26,936 bases of DNA, from IMG/VR virus record IMGVR_UViG_2660238215_000003, one strand, 5' to 3'. The notes under the pieces were generated by a model. The model saw nothing but the letters and a program-made list of their open reading frames with translations. It was not told the DNA's origin and did no database searches. A program made the translations under genes and the position numbers. Positions within the stretch are counted from its first letter, which is position 1. The number at the start of each line of letters is the position of its first letter. The stretch is from a virus. Taxonomy: Duplodnaviria; Heunggongvirae; Uroviricota; Caudoviricetes. Positions 3,416 to 8,597 of this stretch are shown one piece after another.

Positions 3416-3873
3416 GTCGGTTAACCGCGATTATCTCCGCTCTGGTTATCTGCATCATCGTCTGCCTGTCATGGGCTGTTAATCATTACCGTGATAACGC
3501 AATCGCCTACAAAGAGCAGCGCGATAACAAGGCCAGTGAACTGGAGAAGGCGAACGCCACCATTACTGACATGCAGCAGCGCCAGCGTGATGCTGATGCA
3601 CTCGATGCTAAATACACCGGAGAACTAGCTGATGCGAAAAAGCAGCTTGATGATCTGCAGCGTTGTGTTCGCACTGGCAAGTGTGGGCTGCACTTCAATG
3701 CCCGATGTCCAGCGAGCGGAAAGACCGGCACCGGCAGCTTGGGCGATGCTTCCAGCCCCGGACTTACTGACTCCGCTGAACGGGATTATTTCACCCTCAG
3801 AGAGCGAATCGTCACAGTGACGAAGCAGGTCGGCTACTTGCAGGACTACATCAAAGAGCAGTGTTCAAATTAG
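3412..3873 (+). CDS. Rz: Rz, inner-membrane spanin component (i-spanin)
   Basis: Starts [23 protein letters not shown] (N-terminal TM), followed by a coiled-coil-like charged region; lies after the endolysin and contains an embedded +1-frame lipoprotein ORF. The upstream extension to 3283 in the ORF track overlaps the endolysin and is not hydrophobic. Confidence 0.8.
3632..3820 (+). CDS. Rz1: Rz1, outer-membrane lipoprotein spanin (o-spanin), embedded in Rz in another frame
   Basis: Signal peptide ending in lipobox-like ASVGC followed by TS, then a Pro-rich region and C-terminal [11 protein letters not shown], matching the lambda Rz1 pattern; GGAGA SD; fully contained in Rz. Confidence 0.75.
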
Positions 3874-3931
3874 TGTTAATGAAGAATTTTAAGGGTAATA
3901 TTATCTCTATTTCTCAGGATGGAGGTAATTT

Positions 3932-4339
3932 ATGCAGACCGATCTGGAATACTTGAAGGGAATGTTAGGGGTTTTTATTAAGGCTGGCGGACCATTGATA
4001 TCAGCTAATGACCTTAAAAAAGCTGGATACGAAATAAGCAGCGATAAAGGACTCTTTCATTACTACCAATTGATTGAGAGAGGTTATATCAGTAACCATT
4101 TTCTAGAAATAGGCGATCCTAAGAAATTAGGACTTACTATTGGGCTTAATGAAATCCGTGAATGGCCAGCCAATGTAAGACTCACGTCATCAGGCCAAGA
4201 GTTTGCAGAAACCCTTCAACAAAAGGATGTTTTTGAGAAGCTAAAAACAATTAGCGATCAACCATTATCGGTATTGAAAGATGTTGGTGTAGAGCTTCTA
4301 AAATCCTACGCAAAAAAGAAATTTGGTCTTTCAGATTAA
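3932..4339 (+). CDS. Hypothetical moron protein, DUF2513-like winged-helix protein (function unknown)
   Basis: Strong SD GGAGG 7 nt upstream; AT-rich gene in the lysis-terminase interval; motifs LFHYYQLIERGYISN and a C-terminal helical region resemble, from memory, the DUF2513 family. Not searched. Confidence 0.6.
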   Translation: MQTDLEYLKGMLGVFIKAGGPLISANDLKKAGYEISSDKGLFHYYQLIERGYISNHFLEIGDPKKLGLTIGLNEIREWPANVRLTSSGQEFAETLQQKDVFEKLKTISDQPLSVLKDVGVELLKSYAKKKFGLSD

Positions 4340-4453
4340 CTGCCTATGGGCGGTTTTTATTGCCATTACGATGATTCTCCCCATTGTGATGGCAGTATCC
4401 CCTACAGAGGATAATTAACCATATATCCCCACAAGCAGATAAAGAGGCTCTCA

Positions 4454-4567
4454 ATGTCCGACATCTACCAAACCCAAACAGGCGAAACCTTTACGGGCAA
4501 GACGTCACGACGTCAGCCTGAGCTGGTTAATGGCTTTATGCAGCTGGCTACCGAGACGGGCGAGTAA
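4454..4567 (+). CDS. Possible small ORF (37 aa, MSDIYQTQTGETFTGKTSRRQPELVNGFMQLATETGE)
   Basis: ATG with AAGAGG SD about 8 nt upstream; GC content higher than the surrounding AT-rich DNA; no recognisable family. Confidence 0.25.
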   Translation: MSDIYQTQTGETFTGKTSRRQPELVNGFMQLATETGE

Positions 4568-4655
4568 ATAACTCCATTAGGAGAATGTGGAACCATTACA
4601 CTTTGAGCCGTTAACTGATATTGATAAAGGTAAATAATATCCTGGTTAAGGTTTT

Positions 4656-4928
4656 CTAATAGCCAGCCATTTGCAAAATCACAGTTACAGCAGCAGCGAA
4701 AGCTGCATATGAGTTATATTTAGACTGTAACCGCGCAGTTAAGAAAAATTCGTGAAGATCTACATTTTTTTTGGGATCATCAAATGTAATTGCTACAACG
4801 GTGCTTCTACCTGTTTTGACTTTGGCTGTTGCTGATTTGATCCATAACCCAGCCGATAAAAACCCAAAGAAAATCGATAGTGCATGATGGTCAATTAACC
4901 AGTTTTTAATTAGTAATAAATCACTCAT
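4656..4928 (-). CDS. Hypothetical small membrane protein (about 90 aa, two predicted hydrophobic helices), convergent with the DUF2513-like gene
   Basis: Open minus-strand frame of more than 100 codons in AT-rich DNA (stop-rich composition makes chance ORFs less likely); ATG at complement of 4926-4928 gives MSDLLLIKNW...; hydrophobic segments ALSIFFGFLSAGLWI and AAFAAAVTVILQMAG. Its promoter would have to lie inside terS, and the SD is weak. Confidence 0.4.
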   Translation of the reverse strand: MSDLLLIKNWLIDHHALSIFFGFLSAGLWIKSATAKVKTGRSTVVAITFDDPKKNVDLHEFFLTARLQSKYNSYAAFAAAVTVILQMAGY

Positions 4929-4952
4929 TTTCAATCCAATTGAGACTTTGTC

Positions 4953-5504
4953 ATGGCACTCACCGACAAACAAGAGATGTTCTGTCGCGAGTACCTCATC
5001 GATTTAAACGCCACGCAAGCGGCTATTCGGGCGGGGTACAGCGCAAAGACAGCTAACCGTACCGCATCCGAAAACCTGTCAAAACCTGACATCAAGTTAA
5101 GAATCGCCGAACTGAAAGCGCAACGCAATGATCTTGTTGGTATTAATGCAGGATATGTACTTAATCGCCTTATTGAAATCGACCAGATGGATGTGCTCGA
5201 CATTCTCCTGCAAAACGGTGAGCTAAAGCCCATTAAAGACTGGCCTAAGGTATGGCGCACAACGCTATCAGGAATGGATGTCGTGGAGATGGCATCCGCA
5301 GATAGCGCCGCACTTCTGAAGAAAATCAAATGGCCTGATAAGGTTAAAAACCTTGAGTTGCTCGGGCGTCATGTTTCTGTTCAGGCGTTTAAAGACAATG
5401 TCAAAAATGAAGTGACTGGTGCTGACGGAGGACCAGTCAGAACAGAAATTACCAACTTAACGCCGGAGCAGGTTGCAGAAGCGTATAGAAAAATGATGGG
5501 CTAA
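4953..5504 (+). CDS. Terminase small subunit (P27/Terminase_2-type)
   Basis: N-terminus [30 protein letters not shown] is typical of this small-terminase family; immediately precedes the large terminase. Confidence 0.85.
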
Positions 5505-5508
5505 GAGT

Positions 5509-7131
5509 ATGCCGTTACCATTCCCCTTCGATTTTAAACATCCTGATTACCAGATGGTTTTTGAATGGCGGATGGAACGCCTACAGCGCATTCGCCAGAA
5601 TCCTGAAATATTGCCTGCACTAAAACAGTTTTACCGAACCAATCCGGCTCAGTTCATCATCGACTGGGGCATGACAACGGACCCGCGTAATATTGATTAT
5701 GGCCTGCCGGTGACCATTCCGTTTTTACTCTTCCCTAAGCAGGAGGAGTGGATCCACTGGATTATGGAACGCTGGAGCAATCGGGAGAATGGTATTACCG
5801 AAAAATCCCGTGAAATGGGGCTCAGTTGGACCGCGATCGGACTGGCATGCTCGCTTTGTCTCTTCAACAAAGAAATGGTTATCGGTTTTGGCTCCCGTAA
5901 AGAGGAATACGTCGACAGCACTGGTGACCCGAAAGCATTGTTCTGGAAGGCGCGCAAGTTCGTGGAAACGCTACCTGTAGAGTTTCGCGGTTCGTGGAGT
6001 GAGAAGAAGCACGCGCCATATATGCGTGTTGAGTTTCCTGAAACTGGTGCCGTTATCAAAGGCGAGGCTGGCGATAATATTGGTCGTGGTGACCGTACCA
6101 CGCTTTATCTGGTTGATGAGGCTGCATTCCTTCAGCGTCCTCTGCTGATTGATGCGGCGTTGTCACAAACGACGCGTTGCCGTATCGACCTGAGTTCAGT
6201 TAACGGCATGGCTAACCCGTTCGCTCAGAAGCGTCATGGCGGGAAGATACCGGTATTCACATTCCACTGGCGGGATGATCCTCGCAAGGATGAAGAGTGG
6301 TATCGCAGGGAATGCGAGAAAATCGATAATCCGGTGGTGGTGGCACAGGAACTTGATCTGAACTACAGCGCATCAGCGGAAGGCGTCCTGATTCCATCCG
6401 AATGGGTACAGGCTGCCGTTGATGCGCATATCAAACTGGGTATCCAGCCAACAGGCAAACGACTTGGCGCGATGGATGTCGCCGACGAAGGCAGGGACAA
6501 AAATGCCTTTTCCACCCGTCATGGCTTCCTCCTGGAAAATGTGCGGGAATGGTCCGGTGTGGGCAGCGACATTTATCAGTCCGTCGAGAAGATTTTCGGC
6601 TTTTGCGAACAGGATAACCTCGAAGAGTTTCGCTTTGACGAGGACGGACTGGGCGCTGGAGTTCGCGGCGATGCACGCGCTATCAACGAACTGCGTAACG
6701 CTGCGCGTCGACCGTCAATACTCGCCACACCGTTTCGAGGTAGTGGCGCGGTATTTGATCCGGATGATGAAGCTGTTCGCGGGGACAACGGGCAAGCCGC
6801 ACGTCTGAACAAGGACTTCTTCGCTAACGCCAAAGCCCAGAGCTGGTGGCGGTTACGTAAACTTTTTCAGAATACCTGGCGCGCCGTGGTTGAAGGTATG
6901 GCTTACAACCCGGACGAAATCATCTCAATCAGCAGTAGCATGGCACTCAAAGATAAACTCATCATCGAGCTTTCGCAGCCGACCTATTCCATTAATGGTG
7001 TGGGAAAAATCGTTATTGATAAACAGCCTGATGGAACCCGGTCGCCAAACCTTGCCGACTCGGTGATGATCAACTATGCCCCAATGAATTCAGCCCTGAA
7101 CATCTGGGAGTTGCTAGGGAGACAGGCCTGA
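5509..7131 (+). CDS. Terminase large subunit
   Basis: 540 aa, follows the small subunit after a 4-nt gap; ATPase-like N-terminal half and acidic nuclease-like C-terminal half; its stop overlaps the portal start (TGATG). Confidence 0.85.
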
Positions 7132-8597
7132 TGGCACGAAACAAACAAGCCCTGCGGCGAACTGCGCAGGCCACAGCCGATGGTTATGAGAATTTTATTG
7201 CCCGCGTAGGGATGCAGACACCTAACCAGCACTCAGCATCCACCTACCGGGCTAATTTTACCAGTCGTAACCGCATGCTGGTGGAATGGTCCTATCGTTC
7301 GTCCTGGATTATCGGCGAAGCGGTCGATGCTATCCCGGATGATATGACCCGCAAAGGCATTCGCATCACTTCGGAAATTGATGCAAAAGATCGCGGCATT
7401 CTCGAATCACAACTGGATGAGTTGCAAATCTGGGATGCACTGAACGACGTGCTGAAATGGTCGCGCCTCTATGGCGGCGCGGTGGGTTTCATCATGATTG
7501 AGGGGCAGGCACCAATGACCCCTCTGCGACCCGAAACCATCGGTAAAGGCAAGTTTAAGGGGATTCTCCCGCTCGACCGCTGGATGATTGACCCGGTACT
7601 GACCCGCCGCATTAAAGATATGGGGCCGGACCTGGGTAAACCTGAGTTTTACGATGTGGTGACCACAGCAACGGGAATTCCTGCCTGGCGCATTCATCAC
7701 AGTCGACTGATTCGCTTTGATGGCGTCACGCTGCCATTTCAGCAGAAGATGACCGAGAACGAATGGGGAATGTCGGTTGTAGAGCGTATCTGGGATCGTC
7801 TTACCGCGTTCGACAGCGCTACTGTCGGCGCGGCGCAACTGGTCTACAAAGCGCATTTGCGCACCTACAGCGTGGAGAAGCTACGCGAGCTTATCGCACT
7901 TGGTGGTCCTGCGTATGAAGCGTTGCTGAAGAATATTGACCTGATTCGACAGTTCCAGAGCAATGAAGGCATGACGCTCATGGACTCGCGGGATAAGTTT
8001 GAAACTCATCAGTACAGCTTCAGTGGTCTGGATGACATCCTTTCACAGTTTGCAGAACAGATTAGTGGCGCTGTTGGTATCCCACTGGTGCGGTTGTTCG
8101 GACAGTCCCCGAAAGGATTTTCTACCGGTGATGCAGACCTTGCCAACTATTACGACCGCATCAGTTCGTTGCAGGAGAGACGTTTACGTCTTCCGGTGCG
8201 GCGGATACTGGACATCATGCATCGTTCGGAACTTGGCAAGCCGCTCCCGGATGATTTCACGTTTGAGTTTAACCCGCTCTGGCAAATGTCTGATGTCGAT
8301 CGTTCAACGGTGGCGTTAAACACCACCAACGCAATCAGTACAGCGCTGGGTGATGGCCTGATGACACTGAAAGCCGCTATGACTGATTTGCGCGAAAATT
8401 CTGACGTAACCGGCATCGGGGCATCCATTACCGACGAGGACATCGAGAATGCCGAAGATGAAGCGCCGCCCGGCATCGGCGAACCTGATGACGAACCGCA
8501 GGAACCGTCAGGCGGAAATCCGCTATCGAACCAGCCTACGCAGGATAGCGCGGGGGGTCGGAGACATCGTAAATGGTCGCTACGATGGTTCAAATGA
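7131..8597 (+). CDS. Portal protein
   Basis: 488 aa directly after the large terminase; acidic C-terminal tail (DEDIENAEDEAPPGIGEPDDEPQEP) typical of portal proteins. Confidence 0.8.
   Translation: MARNKQALRRTAQATADGYENFIARVGMQTPNQHSASTYRANFTSRNRMLVEWSYRSSWIIGEAVDAIPDDMTRKGIRITSEIDAKDRGILESQLDELQIWDALNDVLKWSRLYGGAVGFIMIEGQAPMTPLRPETIGKGKFKGILPLDRWMIDPVLTRRIKDMGPDLGKPEFYDVVTTATGIPAWRIHHSRLIRFDGVTLPFQQKMTENEWGMSVVERIWDRLTAFDSATVGAAQLVYKAHLRTYSVEKLRELIALGGPAYEALLKNIDLIRQFQSNEGMTLMDSRDKFETHQYSFSGLDDILSQFAEQISGAVGIPLVRLFGQSPKGFSTGDADLANYYDRISSLQERRLRLPVRRILDIMHRSELGKPLPDDFTFEFNPLWQMSDVDRSTVALNTTNAISTALGDGLMTLKAAMTDLRENSDVTGIGASITDEDIENAEDEAPPGIGEPDDEPQEPSGGNPLSNQPTQDSAGGRRHRKWSLRWFK

Follow-up and report, generated by a model that had tools for sequence, protein, structure and literature searches.

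Phage lambda carries a single small gene, bor (46459-46752, complementary strand), between its Rz-type lysis gene and its packaging genes, and in lambda such genes are transcribed in the prophage state, with the Q-dependent late transcript running antisense across them. Here we describe a gene in an equivalent position of a viral DNA stretch of 26,936 nucleotides (nt) (Caudoviricetes; IMG/VR record IMGVR_UViG_2660238215_000003), hereafter the window, by which the whole stretch is meant. It is a minus-strand open reading frame (ORF) at positions 4656-4928, immediately before the terminase genes terS and terL. The frame is very probably a real protein-coding gene, and its product of 90 amino acids (aa) is likely to be a membrane protein, probably of two helices. 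Since bor occupies the equivalent slot and strand in lambda, we regard the place of this small gene as a bor-type accessory slot. Like bor, the gene runs against the late operon, is missing from close relatives and has a deviant base composition. Bor, on the other hand, is an outer-membrane lipoprotein, whereas the small protein is a predicted two-helix inner-membrane hairpin with no sequence similarity to it.

With regard to function, the small proteins HK97 gp15 (YebO-like), T4 Imm, and P22 SieA and SieB are likewise phage-encoded, membrane-inserted and stand-alone, and gp15 and Imm, both with fewer than 100 aa, may be the closest functional analogues of the protein described here. The HK97 gp15 gene is part of the tail operon, and its product has a single membrane segment. 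Pfam holds models for the T4 Imm-type, SieB and YebO/gp15 families, and no Pfam model reaches threshold with the small protein, so that no sequence relation to the gp15, Imm or Sie proteins is detectable. The gp15 protein is a moron product; made in the prophage state, it prevents the phage genome from passing the inner membrane (PMC3594210). Compared with a moron as defined by Juhala et al. (2000), of which Bor is also a product (PMC3594210), the gene at 4656-4928 is likewise extra DNA with respect to close relatives and of deviant base composition; no terminator of its own was found, and for the promoter expected of a moron two weak sigma-70-like sites of unsuitable geometry were the only candidates.

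The small gene belongs to a well-known kind, that of prophage accessory genes for small membrane proteins. Its coding sequence (CDS) is already annotated as that of a hypothetical protein, and a PHROG exists; what is added here is the coding proof, the definition of a family, a structural model and a description of its genomic habit. PHROG 14357 and WP_001281633.1 are the same protein, and the family of 80-100-aa proteins defined below reaches further.

Evidence for a minus-strand gene

An earlier note on this DNA, made from the sequence alone, had pointed to an opposite-strand frame of more than 100 codons in AT-rich DNA. The frame is indeed open for 105 codons, from a TTG at 4973 to the stop codon at 4656-4658, and its first ATG, at 4928 (CAT at 4926-4928 on the plus strand), gives exactly the coordinates proposed and a product of 90 aa plus stop. 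We take this ATG as the start because all homologues begin at the same Met (MSD, MND, MED or MKE); the TTG at 4973 is not conserved, would overlap terS, and was rejected. The GC content of the ORF is 36.6% against 49.9% for the whole window, and at third codon positions (GC3) it is 30.8% against 56-58% in terL and the portal gene. The terS gene begins at 4953 and is divergent from the small gene across a 24-nt spacer. The statement that no plus-strand ORF of any length covers about 4570-4950 holds in part: 38-aa ORFs with TTG starts are present at 4771..4887 and 4940..5056, and none spans the gap.

The length of the ORF is by itself weak evidence of coding. A frame of at least 105 codons arose in 48 of 5000 mononucleotide shuffles of 4570-4975, and the window is rich in long antisense shadow ORFs inside real genes, so that ORF length carries little weight; the other long minus-strand ORFs of the window all overlap longer plus-strand ORFs. 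The coding evidence comes from homologues instead. The one at locus L004 (loci and proteins compared are denoted by L and P numbers) lies in an unrelated phage context and shares 69% amino-acid and 70% nucleotide identity with the window, over exactly 90 codons and with zero indels. The 82 nucleotide differences fall 17/12/53 on codon positions 1/2/3, and the non-synonymous divergence (dN) is 0.21 with the synonymous divergence (dS) saturated, which gives a ratio (omega, dN/dS) of about 0.08. Closer homologues from Klebsiella prophages yielded omega values of 0.27-0.45, with few changes (0.27 for the window against L008). Seven sequences of 51-100% identity contain one single-codon indel in total, the C-terminal tail of P0036 aside, and the other five frames are interrupted by 3-11 stops each in every homologue. 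These substitution patterns show that the small gene is under purifying selection. Conservation of the reading frame had been set beforehand as a check, and the frame was found conserved in homologous as well as non-homologous contexts. Together with a confident prediction of a helical hairpin (below), these results bear out the view that 4656-4928 holds a genuine opposite-strand gene for a small membrane protein.

A family of predicted two-helix proteins

The 90-aa protein matches phrog_14357 over its full length (E 4.3e-62; residues 1-90 on profile positions 1-90 of 90), and the homologues P0002, P0035 and P0036 match this profile too. The labels attached to these entries are 'hypothetical protein' for WP_001281633.1 and 'unknown function' for phrog_14357. 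A profile search of 1.84 billion representative proteins rendered 30 with E <1e-3, nearly all of 77-101 aa, and a second search, of a set of 5.8 billion clusters, rendered 37 proteins, all of them unnamed or 'hypothetical'. An alignment of 28 sequences defines a family of 80-100-residue proteins across Proteobacteria with two conserved hydrophobic helices. The first helix ends in G.LSA.LW..SA..K and is followed by a variable loop of 33-46 residues, after which the motif T..LQSK(W/Y)N..AA..AA....LQ leads into an Ala-rich hydrophobic second helix. Residues Q68, N72, A75 and A76 are invariant in the 28 sequences, and W29 and Q86 are nearly so. Members from Pseudomonas and alphaproteobacteria match phrog_14357 weakly or not at all (P0046: E 9e-6).

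Searches against Pfam at E up to 1, with the protein and the 28 family members, rendered sub-threshold chance matches only (Cas_Csa4, Calmodulin_bind and others). The protein, four homologues and the neighbouring genes had no match in PADLOC-DB 2.0, and a literature search for WP_001281633.1, phrog_14357 and the family motif peptides found nothing.

The two hydrophobic segments that had been noticed are present in this copy and are clearer in the family, with median Kyte-Doolittle values of 2.0 for helix 1 and 1.71 for helix 2. AlphaFold2 run with only three sequences gave an unusable model (predicted local distance difference test, pLDDT, 54), so that the 28-sequence alignment was used instead; with it, a helix at residues 2-34, a short beta hairpin and a helix at 58-89 were predicted with a pLDDT of 92.3 and a predicted template modelling score (pTM) of 0.71. 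The 90-aa sequence contains no cysteine, lipobox or N-terminal signal peptide. The loop is net positive in 20 of the 28 family members, which by the positive-inside rule suggests that it is cytoplasmic and that both termini are outside. The protein would thus insert in the inner membrane as a helical hairpin, and the motifs G22xxxA26, A75xxxA79 and A76xxxA80, together with the invariant Q68 and N72, could mediate packing or oligomerisation.

The slot at the terS start codon

The small gene lies between the lysis cassette and terS. The locus of a lambdoid prophage of E. coli MS 119-7 is 99.8% identical over window positions 3800-7200 and 100% identical over 4340-5100, with the gene order nin genes, Q, tRNA-Asn, tRNA-Thr, holin, lysozyme, Rz-type lysis gene, 135-aa AT-rich gene, the small ORF (minus strand), terS, terL, portal and head genes. 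In the PGAP annotation of that stretch WP_001281633.1 is the only minus-strand feature among 24, and its coordinates match exactly. Table 1 lists the features of the region.

Table 1. Features of the small gene and of the adjoining DNA, with positions in the window
Feature	Position	Strand	Description	Basis
90-aa CDS	4656..4928	-	stop 4656-4658, ATG 4928-4926; MSDLLLIKNWLIDHHALSIFFGFLSAGLWIKSATAKVKTGRSTVVAITFDDPKKNVDLHEFFLTARLQSKYNSYAAFAAAVTVILQMAGY	ORF, phrog_14357, PGAP, dN/dS
First hydrophobic helix, codons 16-32	4833..4883	-	motif G22..S25-A26..L28-W29	hydropathy, AlphaFold2
A8 run	4765..4772	-	T8 on plus strand; codons P52-K53-K54-N55 of the small gene	
LQSKYN motif, codons 67-72	4713..4730	-	best conserved of the family's motifs; the invariant A75 and A76 come next	alignment
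Second hydrophobic helix, Ala-rich, codons 73-90	4659..4712	-	reaches the C-terminus	hydropathy, AlphaFold2
Convergent spacer, 88 nt	4568..4655	.	33% GC; between 37-aa plus-strand ORF and minus-strand stop	
Divergent intergenic spacer, 24 nt	4929..4952	.	between minus-strand ATG and terS ATG; holds the Shine-Dalgarno-like GGA	
terS codons 1-30 block	4953..5042	+	nearly invariant DNA; only possible place for a promoter of the minus-strand gene	

Related prophages whose terS is 96-98% and whose terL is about 99% identical hold unrelated minus-strand genes in the same slot (L003, L024, L025, L026, L027 and L028). At least five alternative cargos were found, each of which begins 19-28 nt from the terS ATG. 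They include a 72-aa soluble protein in S1, a 78-aa protein in PD7, a 182-aa phrog_30882 protein in E. coli C and O55:H7, and a YodC/DUF2158 plus DUF6953 pair in A15 and 210205630, all on the minus strand. In the alignments the boundary of replacement is exactly the terS ATG: conservation starts there, and the spacer is specific to each cargo. On this comparison the terS ATG site is a hotspot for alternative minus-strand cargo genes. Temperate phages and satellites of the P2/P4 type carry accessory and defence genes at sites near the integrase gene or cos, and the terS site resembles those hotspots in that its flanks are fixed and unrelated cargo alternates among near-identical elements. It differs from them in that it abuts terS and in that none of the slot cargos matches a known defence model (PADLOC). 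L066 is a further locus with an equivalent site, and Cronobacter phage ES2 carries a 'transcriptional regulator' there as minus-strand cargo.

The same comparison answers the alternative that had been left open, namely that 4570-4950 is a non-coding cos or pac region in which the ORF is fortuitous. A recognition site of the terminase should co-vary with terS, and the slot is replaced wholesale beside near-identical terminase genes; we infer therefore that neither cos nor pac can lie in it. The repeats or structure that characterise such sites were not found in 4570-4950. A pac site inside the slot was accordingly rejected, the slot not being conserved with terS.

On the other side of the boundary, the first 30 codons of terS form a block with unusual conservation. 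Among terS genes that are just 57-70% identical overall, the protein sequence of this block is identical and the DNA nearly so, with synonymous differences at 3-6 of 27-28 codons for the same amino acid; the same count from codon 61 to the end of the gene ranges from 29/53 to 39/55. The block is an island, with unrelated cargo upstream and diverged sequence downstream. The Cronobacter phages ES2 and phiES15 have it too, irrespective of whether terS is preceded by a minus-strand gene, and the more distant terS genes of vB_EcoM-683R1 and phi297 lack it. Since phiES15 keeps the block with no annotated cargo, the minus-strand gene alone probably does not explain it. Where terS is truncated, has decayed or is undetectable, stubs of about 80-240 nt of the block are still found with the small gene (L007/8, L009, L029-L031). 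The block could be a promoter or leader for the divergent cargo, part of pac, an element for translation initiation of terS, or a recombination boundary. From the layout of the locus, any promoter of the minus-strand gene must lie within the 5' end of terS, as had been foreseen, and the fact that a terS stub travels with the gene is compatible with an embedded promoter, without being proof of it.

A tandem 10-mer, AAAACCTGTC AAAACCTGAC, is present inside terS at 5071-5090 (ENLSKPDI codons), and on the minus strand it includes the TTGACA of a weak promoter-like site described below. On the lysis side of the small gene's stop codon, the plus strand carries a second AT-rich accessory gene at 3932-4355 (135 aa, 37.7% GC, phrog_585, with a sub-threshold match to DUF2513), followed by a terminator-like hairpin at 4338-4355 that is the only one in the scanned region 4300-5300. 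Next to it is a 37-aa ORF at 4454-4567 (plus strand, phrog_6581), with a conserved direct repeat, TATCCCCnACAnnnGATAA, upstream of it at 4396-4414 and 4424-4442. Enterobacter phages ENT1, BHUENT3 and BHUENT6, all of which are devoid of the minus-strand gene, have the segment 4396-4567 at about 80% identity, and it is retained beside different cargo in S1. Genes for tRNA-Asn(GTT) and tRNA-Thr(TGT) are located at 2246-2401, between the Q antiterminator gene and the lysis cassette.

Genomic contexts and possible function

The exact protein is found on 672 contigs, named 'hypothetical' every time, and close variants are found in E. coli, E. marmotae, Salmonella and Klebsiella aerogenes. Of 5426 complete E. 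coli genomes, 11 carry the small gene and 372 have the same terS type; the gene is also carried by 24 IMG/VR viral contigs. A tblastn search of 50,697 deposited phage genomes rendered no copy, so that the known occurrence of the gene is confined to prophages and metagenomic viral contigs.

Contexts were read from the genes called on the contigs. Most of those examined are prophage accessory positions, usually with the gene on the strand opposite to its neighbours. In Klebsiella and Pantoea prophages it lies between lysis and terminase genes (L007, L008, L013); the L004 copy adjoins baseplate genes and a DUF2441 gene; and copies in Pseudomonas and other prophages are located in the early-left region (L016, L059, L061). 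An 89-aa subfamily forms a compact cassette of 375-470 bp that is 86-93% identical across very different contexts: in E. coli it adjoins ssrA or icd at the ends of prophages and converges with rnlB-rnlA, and elsewhere it is found on a Pseudomonas silvicola megaplasmid and in Pseudescherichia and Kalamiella genomes. The Enterobacter hormaechei copy (L029), of the same subfamily, lies in a prophage remnant; it has only an integrase fragment alongside and is located between queH and an oxidoreductase gene.

Some neighbours are of the defence type. RnlA/RnlB are neighbours at three different integration sites (L009-12, L063, L064), which may reflect a linked module or simply co-inheritance. A putative AbiC gene lies directly upstream of a family gene on the same strand (L059), and in other cases the neighbour carries an Mrr-type nuclease domain (L021) or is a PLDc_2 protein (L057). 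In the E. coli loci of the 89-aa gene, the flanking genes are ssrA, icd and a nudix/HAD/xdh region (L063 5091-6923, L064 5091-5860, L009 6001-7745), and the gene is convergent with rnlB in every case, and with rnlA where the latter is undisrupted. No partner gene is retained from one context to the next, so that the protein probably works on its own.

Taken as a whole, these results favour by a small degree (probability about 0.55) the reading of the locus as a moron-like accessory gene of a lambdoid-type E. coli prophage whose product is an inner-membrane protein, with superinfection exclusion or defence as its leading candidate role. Such proteins at moron sites had been said to be often toxins, exclusion proteins or lysogenic-conversion factors; as far as the class can be inferred, the genomic neighbourhood alone leans to exclusion or defence. 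An exclusion or defence role, including that of an abortive-infection membrane effector, is the best single candidate but, taken by itself, less likely than not. As the Q-dependent late transcript runs antisense to it, the gene would be expressed for the most part while the prophage is repressed, and after induction convergent late transcription would silence it. In the lysogen, the protein would counter incoming phages at the membrane, through superinfection exclusion or in the role of a defence effector, and this appears more likely than a role in virion production.

Several observations weigh against this reading. Concerning expression, the Shine-Dalgarno sequence is merely GGA (4937-4935, minus strand), 6 nt from the ATG, as weak as had been suspected, and no sigma-70 promoter of usable geometry was found upstream on the minus strand by a promoter scan and a relaxed scan, so that the 5' end of terS offers no consensus-quality site. 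The sigma-70-like sequences detected are ATGACA-16-GAAAAT, whose -10 element overlaps the start codon, and TTGACA-15-TACGGT at 5082-5056, about 130 nt upstream and with a 15-nt spacer. The same GGA is found at the same spacing in L004, although the remaining leader differs. A terminator scan rendered no convincing intrinsic terminator on either strand of the convergent spacer, and RNA folds of this 3' spacer were no better than those of shuffled sequences (z = +0.28 for 4555-4665, and -0.48). Concerning the protein, the helices of this copy are marginally hydrophobic, with best 17-residue Kyte-Doolittle values of 1.44 (residues 16-33) and 1.50 (residues 73-89); no model of Pfam, NCBIfam or PADLOC is reached above threshold; a search of Protein Data Bank sequences with the family profile rendered chance matches only (E >0.4); and fold searches with the model rendered generic helical hairpins only. 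Concerning the contexts, only a few neighbours are of the defence type, and those with RnlAB may go back to a single inherited module. Besides, a distant member of 98 aa in Methylovirgula (L018-L020 6001-6297) is encoded by an isolated opposite-strand gene that separates trpA from trpB, with neither phage genes nor a mobile context around it. Finally, truncated or frameshifted variants occur (P0003, P0004, P0036). The 55-aa database variant P0004 (ending in ...DDPKKM) results from a frameshift at the A8 run, which is not kept in HZ13 or in the Klebsiella copies. In P0036, a copy of the L009 type, the 3' end has been replaced.

It is possible, though unlikely, that the protein is instead a lysogenic-conversion or fitness factor unrelated to phages, which alters the physiology of the host envelope (stress tolerance, transport, or interaction with serum or host). 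Lambda Bor and Lom, and many small membrane proteins of E. coli, act on host envelope physiology. The slot and orientation are the same as those of lambda bor, nearly identical prophages differ in the genes that the slot contains, and the copies kept in the degraded E. hormaechei remnant and at the non-mobile Methylovirgula site would fit a function that benefits the host and does not depend on phage biology. With no lipobox, signal peptide or cysteine, however, the chemistry of the protein is not that of Bor, several members of the family adjoin defence-type genes, and the sequence points to no specific host target.

The small-residue packing motifs of the two helices and the invariant polar residues Q and N, placed within the membrane or close to it, would also suit a membrane-damaging toxin, a hairpin acting as a pore or depolariser in the role of abortive-infection effector, addiction module or lysis-timing modulator, held in check by the convergent late transcript or another antisense RNA. 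A weak Shine-Dalgarno sequence and the lack of a strong promoter are expected if overexpression is harmful; the gene is antisense to the late operon; the A8 run and the frameshifted variants could reflect counter-selection; and in several phages the lysis cassette is close by. A protein of 90 aa with a polar loop of 40 residues is, nevertheless, unlike type I toxins, the strand is wrong for a holin or antiholin, and no holin, Hok or SLATT model is matched. Nor is an antitoxin or sensor partner conserved across contexts, and the gene is strongly conserved and widespread (at least 672 contigs) with no obvious immunity gene. We consider this explanation improbable.

More specific identities were also considered and rejected. 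A holin or antiholin does not fit the strand, which is opposite to that of the holin, endolysin and spanin genes, the absence of a holin model match, or the C-terminus, at which the protein ends with its second hydrophobic helix, in contrast to the charged tail of holins. A homologue of Bor was rejected for want of a lipobox. Type I toxins are usually of fewer than 60 aa, with a single hydrophobic helix and an antisense RNA in cis or in trans; a toxin of the Hok/Ldr/TisB kind does not agree with the length of 90 aa, the two helices and the 40-residue polar loop, and a search of 3800-5600 against Rfam, at E up to 1, rendered no match, though an uncatalogued antisense RNA may exist.

A real gene might, on the other hand, be silent, a promoterless passenger left by recombination at the terS boundary and drifting to decay. 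That neither promoter nor terminator was found would agree with this, as would the truncated and frameshifted variants and the replaced 3' end of the L009-type copy. Yet near-identical intact copies exist in hundreds of contigs from several species, purifying selection is apparent even among close relatives, as between the window and L008, and the Shine-Dalgarno-like GGA is conserved together with its spacing, all of which makes decay very improbable. A fortuitous ORF in a non-coding packaging region is hardly credible: the chance of such a length in about 1% of shuffles, the common long antisense ORFs of the window, the missing promoter and terminator and the abnormal DNA conservation of the adjacent first 90 nt of terS, as might be expected of a pac element, stand against the codon-position bias and low omega with respect to a homologue in an unrelated context, a family conserved across Proteobacteria, the wholesale exchange of the slot beside near-identical terminase genes, and the lack of cos- or pac-type repeats or structure in 4570-4950.

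The reading as an accessory gene for exclusion or defence can be carried further, to a new class of stand-alone prophage inner-membrane exclusion or abortive-infection proteins with expression signals within the terS block of about 90 nt. This is a speculative extension, in which we place little confidence. If true, the embedded signals would explain why a terS stub moves with the cassette in Klebsiella, the E. coli RnlAB islands, E. hormaechei and the Pseudomonas megaplasmid, and the terS ATG site would be a dedicated hotspot for minus-strand cargo expressed in the lysogen.

The question of whether 4656-4928 is a gene or a packaging site is settled in favour of a gene, and an anonymous 'hypothetical protein' of hundreds of enterobacterial contigs becomes a family with a motif, a hairpin model and a consistent genomic habit, and thereby an inexpensive candidate for screens of exclusion and defence. 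Should the exclusion role prove true, the protein would be one further small membrane exclusion protein, with no new principle involved. The cargo hotspot at the terS ATG and the 90-nt terS block are more intriguing leads than the gene itself, since they bear on the assembly of lambdoid mosaics and on the location of pac or promoter signals.

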